Assembly: GCA_011390065.1 (NCBI GenBank)
Contig: JAABTD010000006.1
Coordinates: 16 to 64,015, forward strand
Reading direction: 5' to 3'
DNA: 64,000 bases
Source: Desulfobacteraceae bacterium
GTDB lineage: Bacteria; Desulfobacterota; Desulfobacteria; Desulfobacterales; JAABSP01
Shown here: piece by piece, positions 23,926 to 45,352 of the stretch
Layout: the number at the start of each line of letters is the position of its first letter
How positions within the stretch are numbered: position 1 is the stretch's first letter
The notes under the pieces: generated by a model
Told to the model about the DNA's origin: nothing
The model's database searches: none
The model's input: only the letters and a program-made list of their open reading frames with translations
Made by a program: the position numbers and the translations under genes

Positions 23926-23938
23926 GGAGGCGATTCAC

Positions 23939-25483: not shown

Positions 25484-27641
25484 TTGAATCCACCTCCTTT
25501 TTCTTTTTCAGCAACAACGTTCGCTTTACCTTAGCAAACAACGGCGGGTTTGGAAAGGGCGCCGACGTCTTCGCGGGGCGTCGGTTGGATTTTCCCCGCA
25601 CCATGACCAGCAAGGTATCCATGATTTCCGACATCCGGCGGGACTGCTCCGACAGCTCCGCCGATGCGGCGGCCGATTCTTCGCAGGAGGCGGCCACATG
25701 CTGGGTGGCCTGATCGATCTCCTGGGCCGCCGCGGTGATGGTCTCGATCCCCCTGTATTGTTCTTTGCTGGCTTCGGTGACGGCGCTGGTCTTTTCCCCC
25801 ATGAGGGTGGCGGATTCGATGATGGCGGTGAAATCCTCATTGACACCGCGGATCGCCTCCGCAGCCTTGCCGACCTGCGCCAGGTTGTTGCCCAGAAGCC
25901 GCTGGGTGTCTTCGGCCGCCGCCGTGGTCTCCCTGGCCAGTTTTTTCACCTCTTCGGCCACCACGGCGAATCCGGCGCCGGCTTCCCCGGCCCGGGCCGC
26001 TTCCACCGCCGCGTTGAGGGCCAGCAGACCGGTCTGGAAGGCGATGTCGTCCACGGTTTTGATGATCTTGCCCATCTGTCCGCTTTCCGATTCAATCCGG
26101 GTTATGCTTCTGGACAGTTCCATGAGGGTTTTGAGGGATTGACCCGATTTTTCGATGTTCCGCCGCATCAGCTCATCGGCCCCTTTGGTAAGCGCCGAAG
26201 TCTCCCGGCTCACGGCGGCGATCTCCTCCAGGGACGCCGAAGATTCTTCTACGGCGGCGGCCTGTTGACTGGCGCTCTGGGCCGTCGATCTGCTGGCGTC
26301 GGCGACCTGGACGGCGGCGGCGGCCACCCCGTCGGTGATCTCCGACAGGCCCTGGATGGAACGATTGAGGGGACGCAGGATTTTACGCCGGATGACAACG
26401 GTGGCGATGACGAGCGTGACCGCCAGGACCAGAAGGGCCATTCCGGCCGTCCAGATCATCACCTGCCGGATGTTGCGGTCGATGCCGTTTTTGACATCGG
26501 CGACCCGCTTGTTGAGGGTGGCCACGGCGTCGTCGATGCGGTCTTCAAGCTGGGATTCCCGGCGGGCCGTCAATTGTTCGATGTCGTCGATATACAGCCC
26601 CGTGCCGATGATCCAGTTCCACGGCTCGAAAAGTTTGACGAAGGAAAGCTTGGGCTGGGGCGCGTCCGCGCCATATTTGGGCCAGTCATAATCAACGAAT
26701 CCTTCCCCCGATGTCCGACACGCTTTGACGAACGCCGTGAACAGATGTTTGCCGTTGGGGTCGGCGTAATCGGTCAGATCCTGTCCGTTCAACTCGGGTT
26801 TGTAGGGATGCATGATCATGTTGGGGTGTAGATCGTTGATCCAGAAATAATCCTTGCTTTCGGGTCCGTAGCGGAGCGTCGATACCATGTCCGCAGCTTT
26901 GGCTTTGAGGGCTTCCTCGGCGATTTCAATATAGACGCCTGAACCGATGATCCAGTTCCAGGGTTCGAAAAGCTTGACGAAAGAAAGTTTGGGCTGAGGT
27001 TTTTCCTCGCCGTACTTGGGCCAGTCATAGTCGACGAATCCCTGGCCTGATGTCCGGCAGACCTCGACGAATTCGACGAAGAGGCGCTTTCCGTTGGGAT
27101 CGGCGTAATCGGTCAGATCCTGTCCGTTCAACTCGGGTTTGTAGGGATGCATGATCATGGTCGGGTAAAGATCGTTGATCCAGAAATAATCCTTGCTTTC
27201 CGGGCCGTATCGGAGGGTTTCCACGATGTCGGCGGCCCGGGCCCGGCGGATCGCCGGCGGAAGGTCGGTCCGGGCCTGGAGGGCTTCCAGTACGCCGCAG
27301 GCGGTGTCTACGGCGTTTTGAAGCGGGACTTTGTAGGCGGCCTGAAGCTTTTCGGGGTCATGGGCGTCCTGGTATCCCTTTTCCAGCACGCTCAACGCCG
27401 TCTGGACCTGGGAGCGCAGATATTCTTTCTTGCGCGAGAGCAGTTCCTCCCGATACGCCGCTATCTGTTGCCGGCCGTCGGCCCGCATCCGCTCGATCTG
27501 TGCGTCGTTGAGCTGTTCGAGACTGCGTATGGCCATGGCGCCGGTCCATCGGATCTGGGTCGCCGCCAGGATGCTGATGAGAGCGCTGACGATGATCAAC
27601 GAGAGGGAGATCATCCACAAAATTCGGGTATTGATGGCCAT
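25470..27641 (-). CDS. Methyl-accepting chemotaxis protein with two tandem Cache-like periplasmic modules
   Basis: TM1 ([19 protein letters not shown]), two repeats of about 102 aa ([31 protein letters not shown]), TM2, HAMP and an MA domain ([31 protein letters not shown]). ATG at 27641 with a GAGGAG SD. Confidence 0.9.
26589..27233 (-). repeat. Intragenic tandem duplication (2 x about 306 nt, period 339 nt) encoding the two Cache-like modules
   Basis: Runs of more than 60 nt are identical between about 26762-26820 and 27101-27160. The protein units at aa 137-238 and 250-351 are about 85-90 percent identical by eye. Confidence 0.8.
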
Positions 27642-27696
27642 GGCGGCTCCTCGATAGGGGCGATAGGGGCGAAAGGTTTCTCCGCGTCGATTTTCA

Positions 27697-27724
27697 GTTA
27701 TACTAAATATCCGGTGCGGGTCAA
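27697..27724 (-). promoter_or_regulatory. Sigma70-like promoter candidate for the orphan MCP
   Basis: On the minus strand: TTGACC, 16 nt spacer, TATAAC, about 55 nt upstream of the ATG. Confidence 0.35.
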
Positions 27725-27814
27725 CGACCGACGTCATTGTCGTTTAAGTCGTCCGTCCCGATCAAAGGGCTTCAGGGCGCCATCGAAGGCGCCCTTATCG
27801 ACGATGCCCCGGGG

Positions 27815-29407
27815 TCATCCCAGGCGGACCTGGCGGGCGCTGAGGATGTTGGGCAGGGTCCGGATCTCTTCCAGGACCGTTTCATCGGCCGGGGTGTCGA
27901 TGTTGACCATGCAGATGGCCCGGTCGCCGCGGCGGCCCAGTTGAAACCGTCCGATGTTGATGTCGTGCCGGCCAAGGGCGCTGCCCACGTTGCCGATGAC
28001 GCCCGGCTTGTCAATGTTCTGAATGATGATCATGGAGCCCTCGGGGATGGCGTCCATGTAGATGTCGCCGATGCGCACCAGGCGCGGGTATTTTCCTTCG
28101 TAAATGGTCCCCCACACCTCGTCGGGGCTCTCCTCCCGGTCCTCCAGCTTCACCTGGATCAGGCCCGTGAAATCGGCTTTGGCGCCGCTGATGGTCTCCT
28201 TGACGTGGATGCCCTTGTCGGCGGCCAGAGCCGGGGCGTTGACGTAGTTGACGGCGGTGTCGGAAAAGGCCTCGAGAAACCCTTTCAGCACCGCGTGGGT
28301 GAGGGGGCGGGTGTCCAGGTCGGCCACGCTGCCGCTGTAGGTGATGGTGATGTCGTGGGTCCGGGTCAGGAGCTGGCCCATGAGCGATCCCATTTTTTCA
28401 GCCAGCCCCAGATGGGGACGGATGCTTTCCATGACCTCGGGGGATACCGAGGGGAAGTTGACCGCATTGGCGATGACGCCGTCGATGAGATAGGCGGCCA
28501 TCTGTTCGGCGATCATCCGCGCCACGTTGACCTGGGCCTCTCCGGTGGCGGCGCCCAGATGGGGGGTGAAAATGGCCTTGGGATGCTTCAGGATGGGCAG
28601 GTCGGGGTCCGGAGGCTCGCCGGGGAAGACGTCCAGGGCCGCGCCGGCCACCTGGCCCGAATCCAGGGCGTCGGTCAAAGCCGACAGGTCGACCACTTCC
28701 CCCCGGGAGCAGTTGACGATTCGAACCCCCGGCTTCATCCGGGAGATGGCGTCGGCGTCGATCATGTTGACCGTTTCCTGCATCCGGGGCACATGGAGGG
28801 TGATAAAATCCGACCGCGCGAGCAGCTCGGTCAGCTCGGTCAGTTCCACCTCCAGGGCCGAGGCGGCCGCTTTGGTGACAAAGGGATCGGCGGCGATCAC
28901 CTTCATCCGCAGTCCGATGGCCCGCTGGGCCACCACCCGCCCGATGTGGCCCAGACCGATGACGCCCAGGGTCTTGCCGCTGATCTCCACGCCGGTGAGC
29001 TGTTTTTTTTCCCATCGGCCTTCCCGGAGCGAGGCGGTGCCCTGGGGGATGTTGCGGGCCAGGGAGAGCATCAGCGAGAGGGCGTGTTCGGCCGTGGTCA
29101 CGGTGTTGCCCCCCGGTGCGTTCATGACCACCACGCCGCTGCGGGTGGCGTCCGATACTGCGATATTGTCCACGCCGATGCCGGCGCGTCCGATCACCTT
29201 GAGGTTCTCGGCCTTTGCCAGCACCGCGCCGGTCACCTTGGTGCCGCTGCGCAGTCCGAGGCCGTGAAAGTCGCCGATGATCTCAGCGAGCCGATCGGGC
29301 GAATTGGCGGCCTTGTCGTTGTCCACCACGACCTCGATCCGGCCGGTTGCTTCCAGTATCTCTTTGGCGACGGGCGACATGTTGTCCCGCAACATGACTT
29401 TAAACAT
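27815..29407 (-). CDS. serA: D-3-phosphoglycerate dehydrogenase (long form with ACT domain)
   Basis: 530 aa with the NAD motif GVIGLGHIGR, a 2-hydroxyacid dehydrogenase core and a C-terminal ACT-like segment. Confidence 0.93.
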   Translation of the reverse strand: MFKVMLRDNMSPVAKEILEATGRIEVVVDNDKAANSPDRLAEIIGDFHGLGLRSGTKVTGAVLAKAENLKVIGRAGIGVDNIAVSDATRSGVVVMNAPGGNTVTTAEHALSLMLSLARNIPQGTASLREGRWEKKQLTGVEISGKTLGVIGLGHIGRVVAQRAIGLRMKVIAADPFVTKAAASALEVELTELTELLARSDFITLHVPRMQETVNMIDADAISRMKPGVRIVNCSRGEVVDLSALTDALDSGQVAGAALDVFPGEPPDPDLPILKHPKAIFTPHLGAATGEAQVNVARMIAEQMAAYLIDGVIANAVNFPSVSPEVMESIRPHLGLAEKMGSLMGQLLTRTHDITITYSGSVADLDTRPLTHAVLKGFLEAFSDTAVNYVNAPALAADKGIHVKETISGAKADFTGLIQVKLEDREESPDEVWGTIYEGKYPRLVRIGDIYMDAIPEGSMIIIQNIDKPGVIGNVGSALGRHDINIGRFQLGRRGDRAICMVNIDTPADETVLEEIRTLPNILSARQVRLG

Positions 29408-29649
29408 TAAATCCCCCTTTTCTCTGTGGGTGTTATTGCTGGAACCGACGATATTTTGTTCTTCTTAACGAAAACCCCTTTTTTTTGCAAGACGGGCTTT
29501 GCCGATGGATAATCCGGTTGCAGATTTGGGCAAAATGCGTTACAAGCCTTTCTTACCGGTATTTATTAATGATATCTGAAATTTGAGATATGAAACCCGC
29601 CGATCGGGGCAAATGCCGGAACAATCGTCAACATTGCCAGGGGGGCGGC

Positions 29650-30129
29650 ATGCTTGCACTGCTTTTCCACATCGGAGAAGTTCGATACATCATCAAATGC
29701 GACCGGATCCGGGAGATCGCGCCCATGGTCGCCCTGAAAGAGGCGCCCCAGGCCCCGGCCTATTTCGCGGGGTATTTCAACTACCGCGGCGCCATCGTGC
29801 CGGTCATCGACCTGTGTCAACTCATTCAAAATACCCCTTGTCGATTGCGGTTGTCCACCCGGATCATTCTGGTGGAGTACCGGCGAAACGCGTCGTCCCA
29901 TATCCTGGGACTCATCGCGGAACGGGTGACCGAGGCGGTGAAAAAGCCGGATGACGCCTTTGCCTCGGCCGGCATCCGGTCCAGAAAGGCCCCCTACCTG
30001 GGAGGAATCGTCATGGATGAGGACGAGATGATTCAGTGCCTGGAACTGGATCGTTTGCCCGACTGCATCGATTTCCTGCCCGAATCAGAAGCGGCGACCT
30101 GTGAAGGAGATGACGCAACAAGAGATTGA
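29650..30129 (+). CDS. cheW: CheW-like coupling protein (WspB-like position)
   Basis: CheW-domain pattern (LLFHIGEVRYIIKCDRIREIAPMVALKEAPQAPAYFAGYFNYRGAIVPVIDL). I prefer the ATG at 29650 with a G-rich SD over the ATG at 29590. Confidence 0.8.
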   Translation: MLALLFHIGEVRYIIKCDRIREIAPMVALKEAPQAPAYFAGYFNYRGAIVPVIDLCQLIQNTPCRLRLSTRIILVEYRRNASSHILGLIAERVTEAVKKPDDAFASAGIRSRKAPYLGGIVMDEDEMIQCLELDRLPDCIDFLPESEAATCEGDDATRD

Positions 30130-31438
30130 AGCGCTGCTGGACCAGCGCATCGGCCTTTCGCCCGGGTCTCTGGGCGGGGAAACGGTTTTAAAGGCCGTGG
30201 GGCGGCGGATGAAACATTGCGGCGTCTCCGATCCCCGGGCCTATCTGGCCTGCCTGCGGTCCTCTGAAGCGGAATGGGAAGCATTGCTGGAACTGGTGGT
30301 GGTGCCGGAAACCTGGTTTTTCCGCAACAAGGAATCCTTCGCTTTTCTGACCCGCCATGTCCGCACCGAATGGCTGTCCGAATCCGCCGGACCGGAGCTG
30401 CGGGTATTGAGCATCCCTTGCGCCTCCGGGGAGGAACCTTATTCTGTCGCCATGGCTCTGGCGGATACGGGTCTGGATCAGGATCGGGTGGCGATCGATG
30501 GTATGGACATCAGCCCGGCCGCCCTGGAAAAAGCCCGACAGGGGGTCTATGGACCCGAGGCCTTCCGAGGACGGAACCTCTCGTTTCGAGAGCGGTATTT
30601 CACCCCCGCGCCCGGCGGCCATCGGATCGATCCGAGCGTGAAAACCATGGTGCAATTCCAGCGGGCCAATCTTATGGAGGAAGGACGGTTTGCGGGGGTG
30701 AAGCCCTATGACGTCATTTTTTGTCGAAACCTCCTGATCTACCTGAGCGACCAGGGCAAAGAGCGGGCGCTGGCCGTGTTCGACCGGTTGCTGAAGCCCG
30801 GCGGCATCCTCTTCGTGGGACATGTGGAGCGATCCCTGATCCGAAATCCCGGGTTTCAGTGGATCAAGCAGCCCGGCGTCTTTGCCTGCCGGCGGACCGA
30901 TGGCGGTTCATCCCCGCCTATGGCGGAGGGCGACCGGAGTCCGTCCCCCCTCCGCCGATCCATTCGCCCCGCCATTCAATGGCCCCCCCTCGCTTCGCCT
31001 CCGTCCGTTTCCGAGACCGCTCCCCGACAGGGATCCTCGAAGGCCGCTCCGGGGCGCAGTTCGATGGATCATCGGCGTCGGTCGGCATCTTCTCCGATGC
31101 CGCCGCGCAAAGCGGCGGTTGTGGAGGGCTACCTGGTCCAGGCCCAGCGAATGGCGGATCAGGGAAAGATGGAAGACGCCTTCCGCCTGTGCGAAAAATC
31201 GGTGGGCGAAAACGCCTTCCACATTCAGGCCCATTTTCTCATGGGGCTGATCTGCCACGCCATGGATAACGAAGAGCGGGCCGAAGAGGCCTTCAACAAA
31301 GCGGTTTATCTGGACCCGAACCACCATGAGGCCATGAGTCATCTGGCGTTTATCATGGAGCACCGGGGAGAATGGGACAAGGCCGAACGGCTGCGGCGTC
31401 GGGCTCAGCGGATTCGGCAGAAGGAGGAAGGCCTGTGA
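30101..31438 (+). CDS. cheR: Chemotaxis methyltransferase CheR with C-terminal TPR (WspC-like)
   Basis: CheR motifs (ETWFFRNKESF, IPCASGEEPYS, IFCRNLLIYL), a Pro/Ser-rich linker and a TPR-like C-terminus. The start is GTG 30101 or ATG 30110; both overlap the cheW 3' end. Confidence 0.85.
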   Translation: MKEMTQQEIEALLDQRIGLSPGSLGGETVLKAVGRRMKHCGVSDPRAYLACLRSSEAEWEALLELVVVPETWFFRNKESFAFLTRHVRTEWLSESAGPELRVLSIPCASGEEPYSVAMALADTGLDQDRVAIDGMDISPAALEKARQGVYGPEAFRGRNLSFRERYFTPAPGGHRIDPSVKTMVQFQRANLMEEGRFAGVKPYDVIFCRNLLIYLSDQGKERALAVFDRLLKPGGILFVGHVERSLIRNPGFQWIKQPGVFACRRTDGGSSPPMAEGDRSPSPLRRSIRPAIQWPPLASPPSVSETAPRQGSSKAAPGRSSMDHRRRSASSPMPPRKAAVVEGYLVQAQRMADQGKMEDAFRLCEKSVGENAFHIQAHFLMGLICHAMDNEERAEEAFNKAVYLDPNHHEAMSHLAFIMEHRGEWDKAERLRRRAQRIRQKEEGL

Positions 31439-32145
31439 CGCCCCGGGCCGAGACAAAACCGGCGGCCTCGGCGGCGCCGGGGAATATCGCGGAATGCTGG
31501 CAGCGCATCGGGGTGTGGAGTGCAGAGAAAAGTTGTCCGACGCTCCAGGCGGTCATCCATTGCCGGAATTGCGAGGTCTTCATCCAGTCGGGGCGGCGGC
31601 TTCTGGATCAGGAACTGCCCCAGACCTACCGGAACGAATGGGCCGGGATCATGGCCTCGGAGAAGGAGGAGGATGAGCTGTTTCAAACGGTTTCGCTGGT
31701 TCTGTTCCGGGTCGAGGCGGAATGGCTGGCCCTTCGGACCCAGATCCTTTCCGAAGTCATTGATCCGCAGCCGCTCAAGCGCCATTCCCTTCCCCACCGA
31801 AAGAACCGGATACTGACGGGGATTATCAATGTGCGGGGGGAAATCCAGCTCTGCGTAAGCTTCAAAGACCTTCTGGGCATCGAGCAGGCGTCCGGGAAAG
31901 AGACCGGCCAGGCCCCCTATCAGCGGATGATGGTGATCAACAGCGACGACGGCAAATGGGTGTTTCCGGTCAGCGAGATCATCGGCATCTATCGGATCCA
32001 TCCCGCCACGTTTCAAAACGTTCCGGTGACGGTGGCCAAAGCCCAGTCCACCTTTACCAAGGGGATCTTCAAATGGGACGGCCGATATGTGGCCTTCCTG
32101 GATGACGAACTTTTGATTTACAGCCTTACCCGGAGCGTCCAATGA
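31435..32145 (+). CDS. cheW: CheW-like coupling protein with N-terminal Cys4 motif (WspD-like position)
   Basis: The GTG at 31435 overlaps the cheR stop (GTGA). It has the N-terminal motif CWQRIGVWSAEKSCPTLQAVIHCRNC, then a CheW domain (LVLFRVEAEWLALRTQ...INVRGEIQL). Confidence 0.8.
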   Translation: MTPRAETKPAASAAPGNIAECWQRIGVWSAEKSCPTLQAVIHCRNCEVFIQSGRRLLDQELPQTYRNEWAGIMASEKEEDELFQTVSLVLFRVEAEWLALRTQILSEVIDPQPLKRHSLPHRKNRILTGIINVRGEIQLCVSFKDLLGIEQASGKETGQAPYQRMMVINSDDGKWVFPVSEIIGIYRIHPATFQNVPVTVAKAQSTFTKGIFKWDGRYVAFLDDELLIYSLTRSVQ

Positions 32146-34583
32146 TCGGCGGCGGAACGGACCTGAGCGATTTCTCCATGCTGGATCTCTTCCGATCCGA
32201 GATGGAGATGCATGCCGGCGCCCTCAGCGAAGGACTGCTGGCCCTGGAAAACGATTCCGGGACCGCCAACGCGACGGATCACATCGAGTCCCTGATGCGG
32301 GCGGCCCATTCCATCAAAGGCGGCGCCCGGATTGTGGAACTGGATGCGGCCGTCAAGCTGGCCCACACCCTGGAGGACTGCTTTGTGGCCGCCCAGAAGG
32401 GAGAGCTTTCCCTCTCCTCGGATGACGTCGATGGACTGTTGCGGGGCGTGGACATGCTCAAACGCATTTCCGACGCTGCCGGAGAGGCGTATGACGACTG
32501 GCTGGCCGGCCATCAGCAGGAGATCGACGAACTGGCCGCCGCCATGACCCGGATTCATTCCCCCGGGAAAGCGGATGCCGGCTCGACCCGCGGCCGATCT
32601 CAACCGCCGACGCGGCGGCCCGGGGCTGAAACAGTCCCCGAACCGCCTCCTGATGCCGCGCCCCTCCCAGATGCCCCGTCCGAAAAAGCGGCGGCGCCCC
32701 GGGGCGCCCCATCCGAAAGGCCTCCGGAGCCCGACGCGCCGGCGACCGCCGCCGGGGAAGCCGCCCGCCGGTCGTCCCAGGCCCGGGAACCGGTCCCGGA
32801 GCGGAAAACGCCGGCCGGAAAGGATCGCATGGTCCGGGTGACGGCCGGCAAGATCGAACGTCTCATCTCCCTGGCCGGCGAGGTGGTGGTGAGCGTTCGA
32901 TGGCTGCCGCCTTTCTACGAGTCCATGGCGGCCCTGAAGAAGAGCCAGGACGAACTGATGTCAACCCTGGATGCGCTCCAGGAGATGGCCGAGGCCGGCG
33001 CGGAGGATCCCCGGAACGCCCGGACGATCCTCCAGACCGTTCATCAGGCCAGAGAAAAAGCCCGGGAGTGCAAGCAGCGGCTGGTCAGCCGGATCAACCG
33101 GCTGGAGGGCTTTACCAGTTCCTCGGAAAATCTTTCGGACCGTCTCTACCATGAAATCATCGGTGTCCGGATGCGTCCTTTTGCCGATGGCATTCAGCAC
33201 TTTCCGCGGATGGTGCGGGACCTGGCCCGGGAGCTGGGCAAAAAGGTCCGGTTCACCATCGCGGGCAAGAGCACCGAAGTGGACCGGGACATCCTGGAAA
33301 AGCTCGAGGCCCCGCTGAGCCACCTGTTGCGCAACGCCTTGGACCACGGCATCGAGCCCCCTGACATAAGAGCCGCGGCGGGGAAGCCCGAGACCGGAGA
33401 ACTCCGGCTGGAGGCGGCCCACCGGTCGGGAATGCTGATGATCACCATATCCGACGATGGCCGGGGGGTGGATCTGGACGAACTCCGGGCCAAGATTTTG
33501 AGCAAGGGTCTTACCAGCGCCGAAATGCTCCACAAGCTGACCGAACCCGAATTGATGGAATTTCTGTTCCTTCCCAGTTTTTCCACCCGGGACCAGGTCA
33601 CGGAGATCTCCGGCAGGGGGGTCGGACTGGATGTGGTCCACAGCATGGTCCACGAGGTGGGGGGCATCGTCCGCGCCGTTTCCCGGCCCGGCAGGGGGCT
33701 GAGCTTCCATCTGGAACTTCCCCTGACGCTTTCGGTGATTCGAACCTTCATCGTGGAGATCGCCGAAGAGAACTACGCCTTCCCGCTGGCCCGCATCGAC
33801 CGGTGCCTGACCCTGGCCCGGGAGGAGATCGACACGGTGGAGGACCGCCAGTATTTCCGGCTGGCCGACAAGAATGTTTCCCTGGTCAACGTCCGGGAGG
33901 TGCTGGAGCTGGAAAAGGCCGACGATCAGGTGGATCTCTTCCATCTGGTGGTCATCAGCGATCGGGTCCATTCCTATGGCCTGATGGTGGATGCGTTTAT
34001 CGGTGAATACGATCTGGTGGTCCGGCCCCTGGATTCGCGCCTGGGCAAAGTTTCAGACATCAGCGCCATGGCCATCATGCTCGACGGGGCGCCCGTGCTG
34101 ATCTTCGACGTGGAAGATCTGGTGCGGTCCATCGATTCCATGTTGACCGGCGCCCAGCGGCTCCGGAAGATCGGCCCATCGATCCGGGCGGCCGAGGAGC
34201 CGGACCGCAAACAGATTCTGGTGGTGGACGATTCCATTACGGTCCGGGAGATGGAGCGCAAGCTGTTGGAGAGCAAAGGATACCAGGTGGATGTGGCCGT
34301 GGACGGCATGGACGCCTGGAATCTGTTGCGGACCACTGCCAAAACCTACGATATGGTGGTGTCGGACATCGACATGCCGCGGATGAACGGCATCGAACTG
34401 ATCACCCAGATGAAGGGGCATGAAAAGTTCAAATCCCTGCCCGTTATGGTGGTATCCTACAAGAACACCGAGGAGGACCGGCTCAGGGGGATGGAGGCCG
34501 GGGCCAACTACTATCTGACCAAAAGCAGTTTCCAGGACAATTCGTTTATTGAAGCGGTGTTCGACTTGATCGGGGGACCATAA
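32142..34583 (+). CDS. cheA: Hybrid histidine kinase CheA-REC (WspE-like)
   Basis: Hpt HSIKGGA, a Pro/Ala-rich linker of about 90 aa, HATPase boxes (LRNALDHG, DDGRGVD, GRGVGLDVV), a CheW-like P5 domain and a C-terminal receiver (ILVVDDS...VVSDIDMPRMNG...YLTKS). The ATGA overlaps the upstream stop. Confidence 0.9.
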   Translation: MIGGGTDLSDFSMLDLFRSEMEMHAGALSEGLLALENDSGTANATDHIESLMRAAHSIKGGARIVELDAAVKLAHTLEDCFVAAQKGELSLSSDDVDGLLRGVDMLKRISDAAGEAYDDWLAGHQQEIDELAAAMTRIHSPGKADAGSTRGRSQPPTRRPGAETVPEPPPDAAPLPDAPSEKAAAPRGAPSERPPEPDAPATAAGEAARRSSQAREPVPERKTPAGKDRMVRVTAGKIERLISLAGEVVVSVRWLPPFYESMAALKKSQDELMSTLDALQEMAEAGAEDPRNARTILQTVHQAREKARECKQRLVSRINRLEGFTSSSENLSDRLYHEIIGVRMRPFADGIQHFPRMVRDLARELGKKVRFTIAGKSTEVDRDILEKLEAPLSHLLRNALDHGIEPPDIRAAAGKPETGELRLEAAHRSGMLMITISDDGRGVDLDELRAKILSKGLTSAEMLHKLTEPELMEFLFLPSFSTRDQVTEISGRGVGLDVVHSMVHEVGGIVRAVSRPGRGLSFHLELPLTLSVIRTFIVEIAEENYAFPLARIDRCLTLAREEIDTVEDRQYFRLADKNVSLVNVREVLELEKADDQVDLFHLVVISDRVHSYGLMVDAFIGEYDLVVRPLDSRLGKVSDISAMAIMLDGAPVLIFDVEDLVRSIDSMLTGAQRLRKIGPSIRAAEEPDRKQILVVDDSITVREMERKLLESKGYQVDVAVDGMDAWNLLRTTAKTYDMVVSDIDMPRMNGIELITQMKGHEKFKSLPVMVVSYKNTEEDRLRGMEAGANYYLTKSSFQDNSFIEAVFDLIGGP

Positions 34584-34597
34584 AGAAGAGAGGCGTC

Positions 34598-36796
34598 ATG
34601 AAAGGGAAGGTAAAAGAGCTGATGAAGCGGATGACCATCGCGAAAATGCTGTGGGGACTCGTCCTCATGGGCATCCTGGTCATTATCGGCCTTGCGGCGA
34701 CCAGCCTGCTGTCCAACAGTCGGCTGGTCAGGAGCCAGAACCGGCTCACCGAGATCGTCATGCCCATGGAACGGGCCAGCCAGAACCTTCGGGAGGCGGT
34801 GACGACCTTTGTGGGGCGGAAATATCTCATCACGGAAGCCGAGACCCTGGCGGAACTCGACGCCCTGGCCGAATCCACTGCCTATGAGAGCGTTTTCAAT
34901 CGCAACATCGATATTCTCAAGGAGCTGAACCGGAAAATGGCGGCCCTGTCATCGGACAGGGCCGCCGATTCTTCGACCCCAGGGCCTGCCGGCAGCGGAA
35001 AGGCCGATGGGCCGTCTGAACATCGCGACGATCTTTTCGAGTCGTTGCAGCGCCATCTGAAGATCGCGGCCGAGCAGAGCGCCGACATCTACAGCGTGGC
35101 CCGGACCCGAATAGAATTGAACCTCGCCATCCAGGAGAAGATCGCCCTGATGGATGCGCTGGGCGGACAACTCCACCAGGATGCCGAGCGCCTTGCCGAC
35201 CGGATCGTCAAAGCGATCCGGGAACAGTTGACCCCGGCCGGCCGGGCCGGAGAGCCCGCGGACCGGGCCGCGGAATTTTATCTGGCGGATTTGGCGGAGA
35301 CCCAGAAAACCAGCGTCGATCTGCGGCTCAATATCGCGTTTCTGACCAATTACGGACACAAGGCCCTGCTGCTGACCGATAAAGAGCGGATCACGGCGAT
35401 CAGAGCGGAAAACATGGTCCCCACGACGGAAAATATCCGGAGCGGGCTGGAAAAGCTTAAGCGGCGGGTCGCCGAATCCGAGGAGATGACCGGACTGCTG
35501 GAGCGGATCGAAGCGGCCTTCGGGCGGCTCCGCAATATCCTTCTGGACAGTGAAGACGGCATCGTCCGCCTTCAATCGCTCTGGCTGGCAAAGGAGGCGT
35601 CCATCGCCGACAAAAACGGGCGGTTGAATCAGACCACCGATGCGCTCATGTCCGGTCTGGACCGCCTTCAAACCCTCTCCGACCGGGTGCGCAACCGGGC
35701 CGAATCCGAGGCCCGGCGGGTCCAGGGCGTCTGGAAAATCATCCTGCTGGTCAGCCTCATCGCCATCGCGGCCATGGCCATGATAGGGCGGCGGATTCAT
35801 CGTCGGATCATGGGGCCCATCAACCGGACCGTTCAATTCGCAGAAGCCATCTCCGAGGGGGATTTGACGGCGGAGATCGAAAAGATCCATGAGGACGAGG
35901 TGGGCCTGCTCATCGCCAAACTGAGCGAGATGGCGCACAATCTCAACGCCCTGATCGGCCAGGTGCAGCGGTCCGGCATCCAGGTGACCTCCTCGGCCAC
36001 CGAATTGTCGGCCACGTCCAAACAGCAGGAAGCGGTCATGCGGACCCAGGTGGAATCCACCAACAACGTGGTTCAGTCGGTGGCCGAAATCTCCAACATC
36101 TCGGAGGAACTGGTGGAGACCATGAAAAAAGTAGCGGCCATGTCCGAACAGACGGCCGATTACGCGAATTCGGGCCAGGACAATCTCGCCCAGATGGAAG
36201 AGGCCATGCAGCACATGGAGAGCGCTTCCAGGTCGATCTCAGGCAAGCTGGAGACCATCAATGAAAAGGCCGCCAACATCACCTCGGTGGTAACCACCAT
36301 CACCAAAGTGGCCGATCAGACCAACCTCCTGTCCTTAAACGCCGCCATCGAAGCGGAAAAGGCCGGGGAATACGGCCGCGGCTTCACCGTCGTGGCCCGG
36401 GAGATCCGTCGGCTGGCCGATCAGACGGCCGTGGCCACCCTGGACATCGATCAGATGGTCCAGGAGATGCAGTCGGCTGTCTCGGCCGGCGTGATGGAGA
36501 TGGACGCCTTTATCGCCGAAGTCCAGCGGAGCGCTGAAAATGTGGGCCAGATCAGCACCCAGCTCACCCGGATCATCGAACAGGTCAAGTCCCTGACGCC
36601 CAGTTTCGAGGGGGTCAACGAATCCATGCAGTTCCAGTCGGAGAACGCCCAGCAGATCAACGCCGCCATGGTCAACCTGAGCGAGGAGATGCAGCAGACC
36701 GTGGAATCGCTCCAGGAATCCTTTATGGCCATTGAACAGCTCAACGATGCGGCCCGCGGTCTCCAGGACGAGGTCTCCCGGTTCAAGGTCGCTTAA
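34598..36796 (+). CDS. Methyl-accepting chemotaxis protein (WspA-like), large helical periplasmic domain
   Basis: TM1 at aa about 15-37, a helical sensor region of about 340 aa, TM2 (IILLVSLIAIAAMAMIG), HAMP and the MA hairpin TNLLSLNAAIEAEKAGEYGRGFTVVAREIRRLADQT. Confidence 0.9.
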   Translation: MKGKVKELMKRMTIAKMLWGLVLMGILVIIGLAATSLLSNSRLVRSQNRLTEIVMPMERASQNLREAVTTFVGRKYLITEAETLAELDALAESTAYESVFNRNIDILKELNRKMAALSSDRAADSSTPGPAGSGKADGPSEHRDDLFESLQRHLKIAAEQSADIYSVARTRIELNLAIQEKIALMDALGGQLHQDAERLADRIVKAIREQLTPAGRAGEPADRAAEFYLADLAETQKTSVDLRLNIAFLTNYGHKALLLTDKERITAIRAENMVPTTENIRSGLEKLKRRVAESEEMTGLLERIEAAFGRLRNILLDSEDGIVRLQSLWLAKEASIADKNGRLNQTTDALMSGLDRLQTLSDRVRNRAESEARRVQGVWKIILLVSLIAIAAMAMIGRRIHRRIMGPINRTVQFAEAISEGDLTAEIEKIHEDEVGLLIAKLSEMAHNLNALIGQVQRSGIQVTSSATELSATSKQQEAVMRTQVESTNNVVQSVAEISNISEELVETMKKVAAMSEQTADYANSGQDNLAQMEEAMQHMESASRSISGKLETINEKAANITSVVTTITKVADQTNLLSLNAAIEAEKAGEYGRGFTVVAREIRRLADQTAVATLDIDQMVQEMQSAVSAGVMEMDAFIAEVQRSAENVGQISTQLTRIIEQVKSLTPSFEGVNESMQFQSENAQQINAAMVNLSEEMQQTVESLQESFMAIEQLNDAARGLQDEVSRFKVA

Positions 36797-36814
36797 GGAG
36801 CGCAAATCGAGCCC

Positions 36815-37903
36815 ATGAGAATCGCCCTTGTCAATGATCTGGTTATGGCGGTGGAAAGCCTGCGGCGCATCCTGCTGAGCGTCCCCGGACATGAGATCGC
36901 CTGGGTGGCCCGGGATGGCCGGGAAGCCGTTACCCGATGCAGCCGTGACCTGCCGGATCTGATCCTGATGGACCTGTTCATGCCGGGAATGGACGGGGTC
37001 GAGGCCACCCGCCGGATCATGGCCGCCACTCCCTGTCCCATTCTGATCGTCACGGCCACCGTGGGCAATCATGCGGCCAAGGTCTTCGAGGCCATGGGGC
37101 ACGGCGCCTTGGACGCCGTCAACATTCCCATGATGGGCGCCGGGGCCGAGGCCCAACGAAGCCGTTACACCTTGTTGCGCAAGGTCCATGTCATTTCCCG
37201 GCTTCGGGGTCTCCCCTCCACCAGCCCGGCCAAACGGGCGTACATGGATCCTCCGCCCCCGATAGTGGCCATCGGCGCCTCCACCGGCGGCCCCAAAGCG
37301 TTGGCCGATTTGTTGTCGACCCTTCCCTGTCCCCTGGGCGCCGCGGTGGTGATCGTGCAGCATGTGGATGAAAAATTCTCCGCCGGACTGGCCGAATGGC
37401 TCGACGGCCAGACGCCTCTGCCCGTGCAGCTGGCGGCGGAGGGCGGACGTCCCCGGGCGGACGCCGTCTACCTGGCGGGCACCAACGATCATCTGGTGAT
37501 GAGTTCCGGCCTGAGCTTTTCCTATACGCCGGAGCCGGGCCGCACCCCTTACCGGCCCTCGGTGGACATCTTCTTTCGCAGCCTGGCGATCCATTGGCCG
37601 GTGGACCCGCATCCCGACGGTTCGTCCGGTTGCGCGGCCGCCATCGCCGTGCTGTTGACCGGCATGGGGCGTGACGGCGCTGAAGGGTTGGCGATTCTCC
37701 GGAAGGAGGGGTGGCGCACCATCGCCCAAGACAGGGCCACCAGCATCGTTTACGGCATGCCCAAGGCCGCCAAGGATCTGAACGCGGCAGTGGAGATCCT
37801 TCCCATCCTGGAAATCGGTCCCGCCATTGTCCGGGCCCTGCGGCGGACCACCCTCTGCGAACCGGACCAATTCAACGGCGAACCGACGGCAAGGCTTCCA
37901 TGA
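36815..37903 (+). CDS. cheB: Protein-glutamate methylesterase CheB (REC plus esterase; WspF-like)
   Basis: Receiver (IALVNDL...[13 protein letters not shown]) followed by a CheB esterase ([34 protein letters not shown]). Confidence 0.92.
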
Positions 37904-39402
37904 GCCGCGATGAGAGACATACCCCCGCCGGCAACGGCGTCGGCGGGCTGACCCAGCACCGGATCACCGTCCTGCTGGTGGACGACCAGGCCATCATCGG
38001 CGAGGCGGTCCGGCGGATGCTGACCGAAGAGGAGGACATCGACTTCCATTACTGTCAGGACGCCACGCTGGCCATCAAAACCGCCGAAAGGATTTCCCCT
38101 ACGGTGATCCTCCAGGATTTGGTCATGCCGGAAATCGACGGGTTGATGCTGGTGCGCTATTTCCGGGCCAACCCGGCAACCCGGGAGGTGCCGCTCATCG
38201 TACTGTCGGGCAAGGAAGAGCCCTTGACCAAGGCGGATGCCTTCGCCGTCGGCGCCAATGATTATCTGGTGAAACTGCCGGACCGGTTGGAGGTCGTGGC
38301 CCGGATCCGCCACCATTCCCAGGGGTACATCAACCTGCTCCAGCGAAATGAAGCCTTCAAGGCGCTGAAAGATAGTGAAAAACAACTGGAGATTCGCAAC
38401 CGGTTCATTCGGGAAACTTTCGGCCGATACCTGTCCGACGACATCGTGGACAACATCCTGGAATCGCCGGAGGGGATGAGGCTGGGGGGCGAAAAGCGAA
38501 TGGCCACCATCATGATGACCGATCTGCGCGGATTCACCGCCATCAGCGAGCGTCTGGCCGCCGAAGAGGTGGTGCGGATCATCAATAATTATCTGGAGGT
38601 GATGACGGACATCATTCTCAAATACCAGGGAACCATCGACGAGTTTATCGGCGATGCCATCCTGGTGATTTTCGGCGCGCCCATCCGGCGGGAGGACGAC
38701 GCCGAGCGGGCCATGGCCTGCGCCATCGAAATGCAGATGGCCATGGAGATCGTCAACGAGCGGAACCGGGCCTCCGGGGTTCCCGAAGTGGCCCAGGGCA
38801 TCGGCATCAACACCGGCGAAGTGGTGGTGGGCAACATTGGGTCCGAAAAACGGTCCAAATACGGCGTGGTGGGCCGGAACGTCAACCTGACCGCCCGCAT
38901 CGAATCCTACACCGTGGGCGGGCAGACCCTGATTTCCGAGAGCACGCTTTCGGCCTGCGGACCCATCCTCCGCATCGACGACCAGACCGAGGTGATGCCC
39001 AAGGGCGTCAAGGAGCCCATCACCATTTACGAGATCGGGGGCATCGGGGGGAAGCACAACCTCTATCTGCCGGAAAAAACCCCGCCCGAGATGATCGAGC
39101 TGAGCCATCCCCTGGGCATCCAGTTCACGGAGTTGAACGAAAAGGACACCCAGGAGGCGGCCCACAAGGGCGTCATCCGACGGCTGGCGGCCGAGGCGGC
39201 CGAGGTGGCCGCGGAGGTCGACGTGGGGCGGCTGACCAACATCAAGATCTCCCTGTTCGACGAGGAAGGGTACGAGATCACGACGGATCTGTACGCCAAG
39301 GTGACCCGGAACCTGTCGGCGTCCCCGGCCGAGTTCGTCGTCATTTTCACCTCGGTGCCGCCGGAGGCCAAATCCTTTTTCAGATACCGATACAATTTTT
39401 AG
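37900..39402 (+). CDS. Response regulator with class III adenylate/guanylate cyclase domain and an unassigned C-terminal domain of about 110 aa
   Basis: The ATG at 37900 overlaps the cheB stop (ATGA). REC (VLLVDDQ...[12 protein letters not shown]...YLVKLP), a helical linker, and a cyclase core ([48 protein letters not shown]). Confidence 0.88.
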
Positions 39403-39458: not shown

Positions 39459-40250
39459 ATGAAGATTAGATTTCTTGGCGTCGGTTCCGCGTTCACGACG
39501 CCGGAACATTACCAGTCGAACCTTCTGATCACGGCCCCCAGCGGGCGGAACATGCTGGTGGATTGCGGAACCGATATCCGGTTTTCACTCCGGGAAGGCT
39601 TGCCGGACAACGCGCTGCCCTACGAGGCGATCGATGCGGTTTATATTTCCCATCTCCATTCCGACCATATCGGCGGCATGGAGTGGCTGGCCTTTTTAAC
39701 CTATTTCAACCCCCATCAGCCGCGGCTCCGGCTTTACATGGAAGAGGCGACCATGCGGGAGATGTGGCGCACGTCTCTCAAGGGCGGGCTCGGCTGTATC
39801 CAGGGGAAGCGGATGCACCTGACCGATTATTTCGACTGCCGTCCGGTGGCGGTCAACGGGTCGTTCATTTGGGAGTCGATCCGGTTTACCCTGGTGCGGA
39901 TGCTGCATATCAGCACCGGATACCGGGATTTTTACAGCTACGGTCTTTTAATGGCCGATGCCCGCAAGGCGGGACCGGCGATTTTTTTCACCACCGACAC
40001 CCAGTACCGGCCCCATTTGCTGCGGGATATCGCACAGGATGCCGCGCTCATCTTCCATGATTGCGAAACCAGTCCGGTCAGAAGCATCGTCCACGCCCAT
40101 TACCTGGACCTCCGGGAACTGCCGGCCGCGTTGCGAACCAAAATGTGGCTCTATCATTATCAACCCGATCCGAAATTCGATCCGGAGGCGGATGGGTTCC
40201 GGGGGTTTGTCCGGAAGGGGCAGGAATTCGACCTGGAGGGTCTCATCTGA
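39459..40250 (+). CDS. MBL-fold metallo-hydrolase
   Basis: HLHSDHIGG (HxHxDH) motif. ATG at 39459 after an AAGGA SD, 56 nt downstream of the cyclase gene on the same strand. Confidence 0.75.
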   Translation: MKIRFLGVGSAFTTPEHYQSNLLITAPSGRNMLVDCGTDIRFSLREGLPDNALPYEAIDAVYISHLHSDHIGGMEWLAFLTYFNPHQPRLRLYMEEATMREMWRTSLKGGLGCIQGKRMHLTDYFDCRPVAVNGSFIWESIRFTLVRMLHISTGYRDFYSYGLLMADARKAGPAIFFTTDTQYRPHLLRDIAQDAALIFHDCETSPVRSIVHAHYLDLRELPAALRTKMWLYHYQPDPKFDPEADGFRGFVRKGQEFDLEGLI

Positions 40251-40260: not shown

Positions 40261-41196
40261 CTAAAACGGTTGACCCGGTCCTCTGAGCAGCGCCAGAGAG
40301 ACGTAGTTCACCAGTCCCCAGATGGCGTCGGCGGCAAAAATCCGCTCGATGGCGCGGTCGAAGAGGATGGAGATCCGGGGCGGATACTCCCGGTCCCCCT
40401 CCCACAACAGGTAATAGAGCGGGACCCGGGGGAAAATGCGCAGCTGGAACGACGCGTCGGCCATCTCCATGGGCGCGCCGGACAGAAAACGGGCGGCCCG
40501 GCGGAACCCCTCCGGGTCGTCGCCGTAGCGTTCCAGCAGATGATCCGTCCGCAGCTCATGGGGGCCCTGGAAGAAATGGGCCTCTTTCAGGTCCTTGGGG
40601 CCCACGATCTCCTTGCCTAAAGGATAAACGCCCGCCACGTTGTTCAGATAGATCAGGGCGATCAATTCCAGAAGAGGATCGTCGGTTTCCTCCCATCCAT
40701 TTTTCTTGGGCCGCATCAGACGCCGACCAGGGATATCCACACGAATTTTTTCGTTTAGACAGTGTAAGACCAGCGCCGCGGCCGGGGCGGCGGCGGGATC
40801 GGGGTCGGCCAGGGTGAGGGTGCACAGATGGTGGACGTCCCGGGCCTGGAGTGCGTCCCAATATTCAGTGGGAACGGTGACGGGCGCGTTGTTGGGAGAC
40901 GTGGCCGGCGGTCGCTGCCGTATGCGGCGTTGCTGCATGTCTATAAATCCTTCGCTGAAAGGGTAGGGGCCGATCCGGAAATTGTCGCAGGGGAAAGCGT
41001 CGCAGTCCCGCGGACAATAAGCCAGTTGGTTCAGGGCTGCGCATTCCAGTATGGCGCAAGTCCCCCCGAAGGTCCGCTGCTGGGCCGCCAGCTTTCTCCG
41101 GGCGTCCGGGCTTTTGCCGGCGCCGCAGGTGGAACAGGTTCCCAATAGTCTCAATTTGCAAACATCGCAATTGATGCCGCAGGCTCCGGTGGGCAT
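40261..41196 (-). CDS. Cys-rich hypothetical protein (DUF3795-like N-terminus plus DUF3786-like C-terminal domain)
   Basis: The N-terminal ~70 aa contain 10 Cys (ACGINCDVCKL..GTCSTCG...CAILEC...YCPRDCDAFPC). The C-terminal region resembles DUF3786 proteins of anaerobes. The family call is from memory. Confidence 0.55.
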   Translation of the reverse strand: MPTGACGINCDVCKLRLLGTCSTCGAGKSPDARRKLAAQQRTFGGTCAILECAALNQLAYCPRDCDAFPCDNFRIGPYPFSEGFIDMQQRRIRQRPPATSPNNAPVTVPTEYWDALQARDVHHLCTLTLADPDPAAAPAAALVLHCLNEKIRVDIPGRRLMRPKKNGWEETDDPLLELIALIYLNNVAGVYPLGKEIVGPKDLKEAHFFQGPHELRTDHLLERYGDDPEGFRRAARFLSGAPMEMADASFQLRIFPRVPLYYLLWEGDREYPPRISILFDRAIERIFAADAIWGLVNYVSLALLRGPGQPF

Positions 41197-41318: not shown

Positions 41319-41365
41319 GGATTTTGCTCAACTGACTGGAAACCGAATGTCGAGGCTTGACGCAC

Positions 41366-42271
41366 ATGCGCCTTGAGGACCGCAACGATGTTGCCCATCT
41401 GACCCATACGCTCTACCGGATCGAAGGTCCCAACCGATCGAAATTCCCCTTTTGCGCCGGTTATCTGTTCGTTGACAAGGCCGTCGTCCTCATTGACGCC
41501 GGCATCGGCGAGGCCAAGATAAAGGAGATCGACAAAGAAACGCCCATCGACATTCTGATCCTGAGCCACTCCCATCCGGACCATATGCTGTCATGGCATG
41601 TCCTTTCCGATCGGCGGATTCTGGTTCCCAATGAGACGCCGCAGATGGCGGACCTGGAGGACATGGGGCGGCGATTGACCGGCAGCTCCGACAAGGGGGC
41701 CTACTGGGCCAAGGTGCTGGGCCGGCCCCTGGGCCTGCGGCCCCTGCGGGAGCCCGATGGCCGGTTCGGCAACCGGAGTCTCCTGAAAATGGGGACCACC
41801 CATTTGGAAGCGATTCACTGTCCGGGCCATCTCGCAGATCATTACTGCTTTTTCGATCGGACCAGCGGGGTTCTGCTGACCACCGACATCGAGCTTGGCG
41901 CCTTCGGCCCCTGGTACGGCAACGCGGAATGCGACATCGATCAGTATAAAAAAAGCGTTCGACGTTTAATGAAGTTTCCGGCAGTCAAGCTGTGCCCCTC
42001 CCACAAACCCCCTGTCAACGAGAATACGGAGACGGTTCTGGCGGACTTTCTTCAGGGGTTTGACCGACACCGCCGAATCATTCTTGAATTGTGTTCGCCG
42101 CCTCGCTCGCTCCAGCAGATGGTCTCCCTCTCCCCTTTTTATCGGAACCGGTTGCCCGATAAAATCCTGCAGCGGATTTTCGAGGAGCCGATGATCGTAA
42201 AAAATCTCGACCTTCTCCTTCGGGAGGGAGTGATTGAGGAAAAATTCGGACATTATCGACGGATCGATTGA
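41366..42271 (+). CDS. MBL-fold metallo-hydrolase
   Basis: ILSHSHPDH (HxHxDH) motif, with later HCPGH and SH residues. The start is ATG 41366; the ORF track lists a TTG at 41357. Confidence 0.75.
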
Positions 42272-42288
42272 TCCGGAGGGCCCCTGAC

Positions 42289-45298: not shown

Positions 45299-45352
45299 GT
45301 TGAGTTGCGCAGGGCGTTTGCCTTCGCCGGCAATTCATATGGAGGTTATTTC

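Follow-up and report, generated by a model that had tools for sequence, protein, structure and literature searches.

A Wsp-type chemosensory operon in a Desulfobacteraceae bacterium with a predicted Cya2-type nucleotide cyclase as its output

Gene content and layout of the operon

We examined a 64-kb stretch of DNA from a Desulfobacteraceae bacterium (contig JAABTD010000006.1; hereafter the window), which carries a chemosensory operon of the Wsp type whose output regulator bears a class III nucleotide cyclase domain. The open reading frames (ORFs) of the operon, together with 40 flanking ORFs, were scanned against Pfam, and ORFs and domain matches give, on the + strand, the order CheW, CheR-TPR, CheW, CheA-REC, methyl-accepting chemotaxis protein (MCP), CheB and REC-cyclase, followed by a gene for a protein of the metallo-β-lactamase (MBL) fold. 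A first-pass annotation, made by a model from the sequence alone, had described seven same-strand genes with these domain contents between 29590 and 39402; the ORF list and Pfam bear out the seven genes, and the part that does not stand is the proposed end, since an eighth + strand gene, that of the MBL-fold protein (39459-40250), comes next. The unit is bounded by a divergent serA (27815-29407, - strand) and a convergent DUF3786 gene (40261-41196, - strand). Homologous loci from genome contigs and metagenomes are designated below by L numbers.

The junctions between the genes are tight. A GTGA overlap joins cheR to cheW2 at 31435, and ATGA overlaps join cheW2 to cheA at 32142 and cheB to the cyclase gene at 37900, just as first described. 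The remaining junctions had been put down as gaps of 14-18 nucleotides (nt), which fits cheA/MCP (14 nt) and MCP/cheB (18 nt), with a purine-rich ribosome-binding site (RBS) preceding both the MCP gene and cheB, and fails for cheW1/cheR, where the cheR start (ATG 30110, or GTG 30101) precedes the cheW1 stop at 30129 and creates a 20-nt overlap of a kind also present in the gene calls of two relatives (L029 and L031). Synteny of this gene set extends to more than 30 independent loci, so that the arrangement cannot be put down to chance. Pfam detected flagellar or pilus genes in none of the 40 flanking window ORFs, in agreement with the earlier remark that flagellar genes are absent nearby.

All chemosensory genes lie on the + strand and their products resemble the components of the Wsp pathway one by one. 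cheW1 (29650-30129; PF01584 CheW, E 8.5e-24) encodes a WspB-like single-domain coupling protein; an alternative upstream ATG exists at 29590, and the start at 29650 is more likely because it has a G-rich RBS and yields 159 amino acids (aa), homologues being 149-167 aa long. Its product is 84% identical to the counterparts in L001/L002 and 34-43% identical to those of canonical Wsp-order clusters. The following gene, cheR-TPR (30110-31438; PF01739 CheR, E 7e-45), encodes a WspC-like methyltransferase with a C-terminal TPR tail, matched by TPR_2/TPR_1/TPR_8 (residues 376-408 when the 445-aa ORF is translated from GTG 30101); CheR-TPR is a marker of ACF-type clusters, ACF standing for alternative cellular function (PMC3447774). 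The second coupling protein, encoded by cheW2 (31435-32145; PF01584, E 2.9e-18), is WspD-like and longer than the first. Its N-terminal region contains a four-cysteine motif, CW..IG..(5-7)SCP.L....HC.NC (31495-31572), which is kept in 12 of 13 homologous Wsp-order clusters across phyla and suggests a metal- or redox-binding module in WspD-type proteins.

cheA-REC (32142-34583) encodes a WspE-like hybrid kinase of 813 aa with Hpt, H-kinase_dim, HATPase_c, CheW and Response_reg domains, 46-55% identical to the CheA proteins of canonical Wsp-order clusters. Between cheA and cheB lies the gene of the membrane chemoreceptor, the WspA counterpart (34598-36796; PF00672 HAMP, PF00015 MCPsignal). This receptor has two transmembrane segments, with hydrophobic stretches starting at residues 11-26 and 374-383, a periplasmic region of about 330 aa that matches no family, and a signalling hairpin of about 40 heptads by hand count rather than by class hidden Markov model (HMM), whose arms before and after the GRGF tip at residue 593 are 142 and 139 residues long. 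The WspA orthologue of P. syringae belongs to class 40H (PMC11253619). cheB (36815-37903; PF01339, E 2e-51, and PF00072) encodes a WspF-like REC-methylesterase that scores 426 bits against the NCBIfam CheB subfamily NF009206 (cutoff 342); NCBIfam has no Wsp-specific models and places this protein in that subfamily only.

The double CheW, TPR-tailed CheR and CheA-REC hybrid had been said to mirror Wsp, and Pfam and synteny agree, CheB and a membrane MCP being present as well. The displacement of the MCP gene to the middle, noted at the same time, is real in the window, with the addition that this order is specific to one subclade. Taken together, the sequence evidence supports a Wsp-type, ACF-class pathway: every architectural test that could be run points this way, the ACF label being one of architecture and homology rather than of class HMMs. 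A strict definition of Wsp would include a REC-GGDEF output regulator, and here PF00211 Guanylate_cyc occupies the place of GGDEF.

The output regulator and its relatives

The output regulator (37900-39402, + strand) is a protein of 500 aa in which Pfam recognizes REC and Guanylate_cyc. It comprises a WspR-type receiver (residues 20-140, DNA 37957-38319; from Pfam and a phmmer search of the PDB), a stalk helix leading into a cyclase transducer element (CTE) with the motif FGRY (residues 141-194, DNA 38320-38481), a Cya2-type class III cyclase domain (residues 195-385, DNA 38482-39054; PF00211, 86.5 bits for a cutoff of 21.9) and a degenerate PilZ-like barrel (residues ~395-500, DNA ~39082-39402; from AlphaFold2 and Foldseek). 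In the AlphaFold2 (AF2) model of the protein, a single long helix (residues 129-174) connects the receiver to the cyclase core, after which comes a β-rich C-terminal domain predicted with confidence; the core is partly of low confidence, as is to be expected when a dimeric enzyme is modelled as a monomer.

When residues 15-172 were searched with phmmer against all PDB sequences, the best matches were WspR of P. aeruginosa (3BRE, E 1e-55) and of P. syringae (3I5A). Receiver and stalk share 59% identity with WspR over 158 aa without a gap, or 64% by BLAST, and the phospho-receiver residues D28, D29, D73, S103 and K125 are kept in 120 of 120 family cluster representatives. Clustered at 90% identity, the best matches by themselves already put the family at 120 clusters or more. 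The first-pass annotation had placed a REC-cyclase in the WspR position, which holds: the receiver has WspR as its best match and the class III cyclase has intact active-site residues (see below).

The survey of output domains in homologous clusters that had been called for yielded PP2C, GGDEF, histidine-kinase and cyclase outputs. Receiver and stalk are 64-75% identical to those of the terminal regulators of MCP-CheW-CheR-CheW-CheA-CheB-response regulator clusters in other taxa, namely Verrucomicrobiota, Kiritimatiellia, Planctomycetota, Acidobacteriota, Desulfovibrio and a betaproteobacterium. Ten such canonical clusters were scanned with Pfam, and their terminal regulators carry SpoIIE/PP2C in eight cases, GGDEF in one (L019) and HisKA-HATPase-REC in one (L015). 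Among the genome-contig loci L005-L028, Wsp-order REC-PP2C clusters are common in the Verrucomicrobiota, Kiritimatiellia, Planctomycetota and Acidobacteriota, and their receivers are unusually conserved across phyla, at the same 64-75% identity to that of the window. In a neighbour-joining tree of receiver and stalk, built with no support values, the cyclase-linked receivers form one clade among PP2C-linked ones, and WspR groups with the GGDEF-linked L019. Similarity between Wsp-type regulators ends inside the stalk, just before the CTE. Since the same receiver and stalk are joined elsewhere to PP2C, GGDEF or histidine-kinase outputs, the output appears to have been swapped at the stalk. The alignments thus support a regulator that keeps the WspR receiver and the first half of the coiled-coil stalk, with a CTE, a Cya2-type cyclase and a PilZ-like barrel replacing GGDEF.

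The C-terminal domain was examined separately. Modelled alone, residues 386-500 reach an AF2 confidence score (pLDDT) of 88, and the top 19 Foldseek matches in the PDB are all PilZ domains (TM-score 0.54-0.65, E from 8e-4). PF07238 PilZ does not match the window copy in Pfam and matches only 3 of 31 relatives, weakly. The two c-di-GMP motifs, RxxxR and (D/N)xSxxG, occur neither in the window sequence nor in the family consensus, and a c-di-GMP-binding PilZ domain is rejected for lack of both. On the strength of the model, we regard the domain as a PilZ-like module in degenerate form. A comparable part may be the C-terminal extension (residues 639-756) of the Synechocystis cyclase Cya2, which Cya2 fusions need for activity (PMC5995499).

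Retrieval of relatives depended on the kind of search. A scan of genome contigs with patterns from single proteins used overly specific peptides and found only the closest cyclase loci (L001-L004, L024), its receiver patterns also retrieving Wsp-order clusters with other outputs. The closest relatives are Desulfobacteraceae metagenome-assembled genomes (L001-L004), which have the same eight genes in order and regulators up to 95% identical. The eight-gene order recurs in Desulfonema ishimotonii (L029) and in L032, with an extra gene for a periplasmic-binding or unknown protein before that of the MCP. In three loci of Desulfobacterota (L031, L033 and L034) the REC-cyclase gene comes after a canonical MCP-CheW-CheR-CheW-CheA-CheB series. 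Genes for periplasmic binding proteins adjoin the che genes in L029, L031 and L034.

A profile-based scan of metagenomes gave 80 loci with this cyclase type, in which the cyclase is joined to a Wsp-type receiver (at least 55% identical; 38 loci), joined to an unrelated receiver (27 loci) or has no adjacent receiver detected (15 loci, some of them incomplete). Among the 28 Wsp-type loci with at least 1.2 kb of upstream sequence, a che gene lies directly upstream of the REC-cyclase in 21 (19 CheB, 1 MCP, 1 CheA); when the receiver is at least 61% identical the proportion is 21 of 22. Downstream, 27 Wsp-type loci offer at least 0.9 kb, and there a second Wsp-type regulator of the REC-PP2C kind follows in 10, the MBL gene in 4 and neither in 13. 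Loci with an unrelated receiver or none are without che genes, and most keep the PilZ-like tail.

Several variants on this theme were seen. A second Wsp-type receiver fused to SpoIIE/PP2C directly follows the REC-cyclase in L031 (11479-12693) and L034 (11488-12726), and REC-PP2C genes stand in the same position in L037-L039, L041, L043-L046, L048, L063 and L076. Given such tandem Wsp-type regulators, one chemosensory kinase may drive two outputs in parallel, a REC-cyclase and a REC-PP2C. In L033 the cyclase and MBL genes are followed (13135-15077) by genes for an Hpt protein, for a REC-SpoIIE protein whose divergent receiver shares 34% identity, and for an anti-sigma-type kinase with HATPase_c_2, which looks like a partner-switch module beside the chemosensory cluster. 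L030 encodes a 782-aa cyclase variant with three receivers (259-2607); the receiver next to the cyclase shares only 41% identity with the Wsp type. Multi-REC versions also occur in L069 and L070, and the cyclase with its PilZ-like module is thus reused with other two-component inputs.

Predicted product, candidate phosphodiesterase and alternative readings

The catalytic domain resembles one characterized enzyme closely. With residues 170-391 as query, phmmer retrieved from the PDB the guanylyl cyclase Cya2 of Synechocystis (2W01, E 2e-67, and also 6FHT), with 55% identity over 222 ungapped residues. The catalytic and specificity residues of Cya2 are D448, R450, E488, D492, G562, N569, R573 and K608 (PMC6005667), and all eight have counterparts at a constant offset in the regulator, namely D208, R210, E248, D252, G322, N329, R333 and K368. 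A catalytically dead domain, which the first-pass annotation had named among the outcomes that would refute its proposal, is hence not what the residues suggest. Within the family, 119-120 of 120 relatives keep D208, D252, N329, R333, R318/R210 and K368. The strong preference of Cya2 for GTP is due to a Glu-Gly pair, E488/G562 (PMC6005667), where adenylate cyclases have Lys-Asp/Thr instead; of the corresponding residues, all 120 representatives have Glu248 and 116 have Gly322; a single substitution, E488K, turns Cya2 into an adenylate cyclase (PMC5995499), and Lys at the Glu248 site occurs in 0 of 120. Between coiled coil and catalytic core, residues 174-177 form the FGRY motif of a CTE as described in PMC5995499, with F and G kept in 120 of 120.

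Because all eight Cya2 residues are kept, the Glu-Gly pair included, cGMP is the predicted product, and we hold it probable that the enzyme makes cGMP from GTP. The broader claim, that a chemosensory pathway here has an active cyclase as its output, can be advanced with considerable confidence from the same residues and the operon context. Control of cAMP or cGMP rather than c-di-GMP had been proposed earlier, and the specificity residues support this while pointing to cGMP over cAMP.

The eighth gene (39459-40250, + strand) encodes a putative class II phosphodiesterase of 263 aa, of the MBL fold and the Apyc1 family (PF23023 Anti-Pycsar_Apyc1, 80.5 bits for a cutoff of 50). Its only strong PDB relatives are Apyc1 structures (7T28, 7U2R and 7U2S; E 1e-26 to 3e-23), and its metal motif HxHxDH, the role of which has been described (PMC9117128), reads SHLHSDH where the Apyc1 structures have THTHADH and THIHGDH. 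Apyc1 and bacterial Apyc1-like proteins are class II phosphodiesterases that hydrolyse a broad range of cyclic nucleotide monophosphates (cNMPs), and Hobbs et al. considered that host homologues possibly serve other cNMP signalling systems (PMC9117128). Across all collections the MBL gene lies directly 3' of this cyclase type in 18 loci (L001-L004, L024, L029, L030, L032, L033, L035, L036, L047, L064, L081, L084, L094 and L106 among them). It follows cyclases of the subfamily with at least three different N-terminal architectures, including those of non-Wsp loci without che genes in which the receiver is unrelated or lacking (L030, L081, L084 and L094), and the two coding sequences overlap in L030 and L033. 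The chief reason to think that the MBL protein acts on what the cyclase makes is this return of its gene in one setting after another; the protein is likely, as far as homology and gene order can tell, to be the cognate phosphodiesterase. The gene is chromosomal, lies between che genes and the DUF3786 gene and has no phage genes nearby, a setting other than that of a phage-encoded anti-Pycsar protein; it therefore encodes a homologue within the enzyme family and not an anti-defence protein.

Gene content, coupling, synteny, the orthology of the receiver to that of WspR, the intact catalytic residues and the recurrence of the MBL gene lead us to a reading of the whole as a Wsp-type pathway with a cGMP cyclase as output and an MBL phosphodiesterase, to which we assign a probability of about 0.6. 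The membrane receptor, with its large periplasmic domain, would form signalling complexes with the two CheW-like proteins and CheA-REC, and would be methylated by CheR-TPR and demethylated by CheB, which would provide adaptation. CheA would phosphorylate Asp73 of the output regulator; phosphorylation would alter the geometry of stalk and CTE in the dimer and switch the cyclase on, which would convert GTP to cGMP by means of its Glu-Gly pair, as in Cya2. The presumably co-transcribed Apyc1-family phosphodiesterase is proposed to hydrolyse the cyclic nucleotide, and for this reason the signal would be transient. Effectors would be encoded outside the window, and relatives suggest two candidate kinds, cNMP_binding-DUF4388 proteins, whose genes adjoin the operon in L035 (7439-8812, - strand) and L036 (72-941, + strand), and a cNMP_binding-anion transporter, as in L030, where a gene for a cNMP_binding-Na_sulph_symp/CitMHS protein (3437-5320, + strand) follows the cyclase-MBL pair. 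The most complete version of this reading, a self-contained cGMP circuit of an adapting Wsp-type array, a phospho-activated Cya2-type cyclase, a dedicated host Apyc1-type phosphodiesterase and a cNMP-binding readout, we put forward tentatively, as possible rather than probable.

A number of points weigh against this reading. Two residues are an imperfect guide to the substrate of a bacterial class III cyclase, and JGI and NCBI annotate the family as 'adenylate cyclase'; phosphotransfer, activation and product are all inferred. The MBL gene is present in only 4 of the 27 Wsp-type metagenome loci with enough downstream sequence, so that the phosphodiesterase is not obligatory to the pathway, and the REC-PP2C regulator (10 of 27) or neither gene (13 of 27) is found in its place; in the window, 56 nt separate it from the cyclase gene, with no overlap. 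As to effectors, the cNMP-binding domains of L035 and L036 are without the canonical phosphate-binding Arg, having ...GNPVGATVKV there instead, and Pfam on the 40 flanking ORFs and tblastn with the cNMP_binding-DUF4388 protein of L036 detected no cNMP-binding effector in the 64-kb window.

The first of these points bears on an unlikely but serious alternative, in which the pathway is the same and the output enzyme is an adenylate cyclase, or promiscuous, so that cAMP is controlled. Names such as 'adenylate cyclase' and 'adenylate/guanylate cyclase domain-containing protein' are given to family members by the source databases, bacteria use cAMP far more commonly, and residue-based prediction of specificity is known to be leaky for bacterial class III cyclases; a swap of the specificity residues in Ma1120 was reportedly studied for that reason (PMC4215837). 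Yet the nearest characterized enzyme, at 55% identity, is the GTP-specific Cya2, whose Glu and Gly, with their supporting residues, are reproduced in place of Lys-Asp/Thr, and the Glu-to-Lys change that alone makes Cya2 use ATP is absent from the whole family sample. The MBL protein could also be an unrelated hydrolase, RNase Z-like or other, that stands beside the cyclase by chance, the signalling unit then being the seven genes. Sub-threshold NCBIfam matches to the RNase Z N-terminal region (E 1e-13, 51 bits for a cutoff of 252) speak for it, as do the equally sub-threshold score against the 'cyclic nucleotide-degrading phosphodiesterase' equivalog model NF041851 (39 bits against 400), the 56-nt gap and the lack of the MBL gene in most Wsp-type REC-cyclase metagenome loci. 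This seems distinctly improbable to us, considering that the Apyc1 family score exceeds the Pfam gathering threshold, that strong PDB relatives are solely Apyc1 cNMP phosphodiesterases with HxHxDH aligned, and that the gene directly follows the cyclase in the 18 loci, with and without che genes, and overlaps it in two.

Two further alternatives concern the connection of the cyclase to the array. The REC-cyclase might not be the output of this CheA, being driven by another kinase or constitutive, and the real output might be the receiver of CheA-REC or an unlinked regulator. The transfer of phosphate from CheA to the regulator is after all a deduction; a REC-PP2C comes right after the cyclase in some relatives and is possibly the main output there; and six loci with receivers 57-60% identical, as well as L075 (69%), have no che gene directly upstream. 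Nevertheless, the regulator gene overlaps cheB by ATGA, its receiver is an orthologue of WspR, the established substrate of WspE, and a che gene stands directly upstream in all but one of the 22 loci with receivers at least 61% identical, which makes this alternative very improbable. We give almost no credence to the view that cyclase and MBL protein form a Pycsar-like pyrimidine-cyclase defence module or an anti-defence remnant. The PADLOC PycC models do match the cyclase domain (best E 1.3e-23), and the neighbouring gene belongs to a family named after the phage anti-Pycsar protein Apyc1, but the PycC matches reflect shared class III homology and are far weaker than the match to Cya2, the Glu-Gly pair belongs to cyclases of a purine nucleotide (GTP), and the regulator gene is translationally coupled to cheB and encodes a WspR-type receiver. 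Neither a Pycsar effector (transmembrane or TIR) nor phage genes were seen nearby, and host Apyc1 homologues may, according to Hobbs et al. (PMC9117128), serve other cNMP systems. A Pycsar defence system is accordingly rejected, the PycC homology being generic, no effector being adjacent and the neighbours being che and phosphodiesterase genes.

Neighbouring genes and comparison with known systems

Upstream of the operon, the AT-rich 180-nt gap between the divergent serA and cheW1 contains a candidate σ70-like promoter (TTGCAA, 17 nt, GATAAT; 29484-29513, + strand), suggested by its position; promoter and terminator scans gave match counts not above shuffled expectation. No terminator-like site was found downstream of 40250, where the convergent DUF3786 gene ends 10 nt away, and Rfam and tRNA scans yielded nothing relevant to the operon, the sole match being a tRNA-Arg (19782-19857). 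An orphan gene for a dCache_2/sCache_2 methyl-accepting chemotaxis protein (25470-27737), which runs on the - strand, opposite to the operon, is found two genes upstream of it. Further upstream, two radical-SAM/SPASM genes flank hemB (ALAD; 21717-25063, + strand); this group looks like part of an alternative pathway to haem or a sirohaem-derived cofactor typical of sulfate reducers and unrelated to the operon. Just past the DUF3786 gene come a second, unrelated MBL-fold gene (Lactamase_B only) and a gene for a retropepsin-like aspartyl protease (41357-43020, + strand).

One more gene with a CheW domain was seen in the window. A 673-aa protein with REC, NMT1_2 periplasmic-binding-like and CheW domains is encoded at 45305-47326 (+ strand), immediately upstream of an ABC transporter (47357-48121, 48099-49322 and 49292-50152, for the ATPase, a twin-arginine-signal (TAT) NMT1 binding protein and the permease). 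Judged by its domains, it is a CheV-like coupling protein with an insert resembling a substrate-binding protein. The same REC-NMT1_2-CheW gene is also present downstream in L001, L002 and L004.

To our knowledge, worked examples of bacterial cGMP signalling are few, namely Synechocystis Cya2, cyst formation in Rhodospirillum centenum and one Xanthomonas system, and of links from chemosensory pathways to a cyclic mononucleotide only one is well known, the Chp-CyaB route, which leads indirectly to cAMP. A literature search, in which subscription journals were sparsely covered, found nothing on cGMP signalling in sulfate reducers and, instead of a functional or detailed bioinformatic study of a chemosensory REC-cyclase, only a table entry of 2012. 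The architecture would not surprise a chemosensory specialist in principle, and it is a widespread candidate for control of cGMP by a receptor array. The direct link, through a WspR-type receiver fused to a Cya2-type cyclase, would offer a clean and testable case of an adapting array that controls cGMP (or cAMP). One receiver and stalk joined to GGDEF, PP2C, histidine-kinase or cyclase outputs also provides a natural experiment in output swapping, and the operon proposes a physiological context for host Apyc1-like phosphodiesterases, a possibility left open by Hobbs et al. With at least 120 clusters at 90% identity in the family, any function would be broad across the sulfate-reducing Desulfobacterota of sediments. 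Should the full circuit exist, cGMP would rank as a mainstream second messenger across the Desulfobacterales, and the Apyc1 homologues of hosts would serve a physiological function.

The nearest published architecture is that table entry. ACF clusters are known to carry diverse multidomain regulators, and Table S2 of Munoz-Martinez et al. (2012) lists, for the delta proteobacterium NaphS2, a cheR-TPR cluster with a 'REC - CHD mononucleotidyl cyclase' regulator (PMC3447774). Judged by this entry, the architecture class is the same and the host is a related sulfate reducer; specificity residues, a phosphodiesterase partner, receiver orthology, distribution and function were not analysed there. 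Synechocystis Cya2 shares with the window regulator a catalytic domain 55% identical without gaps, the same metal-binding, transition-state and Glu-Gly residues, the FGRY motif and a C-terminal extension past the cyclase core; Cya2 is however a membrane protein under an extracellular CHASE2 domain, whereas the regulator has a WspR-type receiver and is encoded in a chemosensory operon. The Apyc1 enzymes (of phage SBSphiJ/Bsp38 and Paenibacillus, and YhfI of B. subtilis) have the MBL fold, HxHxDH and PF23023 in common with the eighth gene product, whose best PDB matches are Apyc1 structures. They differ in that the window gene is chromosomal and lies beside a cyclase gene in a chemosensory operon, with a presumed role in signal termination and not in immune evasion.

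Among chemosensory systems, Pil-Chp of P. aeruginosa likewise governs how much there is of a cyclic mononucleotide that a class III cyclase (CyaB) makes, but it belongs to the type IV pilus (Tfp) class, reaches its cyclase, a separate membrane protein, by an indirect route via PilG and accessory proteins, uses cAMP and has no REC-cyclase fusion. The Wsp-order REC-PP2C clusters have the same six upstream che genes and a receiver and stalk 64-75% identical, and some Desulfobacterota loci carry REC-cyclase and REC-PP2C in tandem; their output is however a protein phosphatase, presumably in a partner switch, and not a nucleotide cyclase. The prototype ACF pathway, Wsp of P. aeruginosa and P. fluorescens, shares with the operon a membrane MCP of about 40 heptads, two CheW-like proteins, CheR-TPR, CheA-REC and CheB, and a WspR receiver and stalk 59-64% identical. 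The outputs of the two are dimeric nucleotide cyclases that share a class of palm-like fold and are joined to a coiled-coil stalk. The window differs from it in the position of the MCP gene between cheA and cheB, in the appended gene for a putative phosphodiesterase, in its Desulfobacteraceae host and in its output, where GGDEF is replaced by a class III Cya2-type cyclase preceded by a CTE and followed by a PilZ-like tail, with cGMP rather than c-di-GMP as the predicted messenger.

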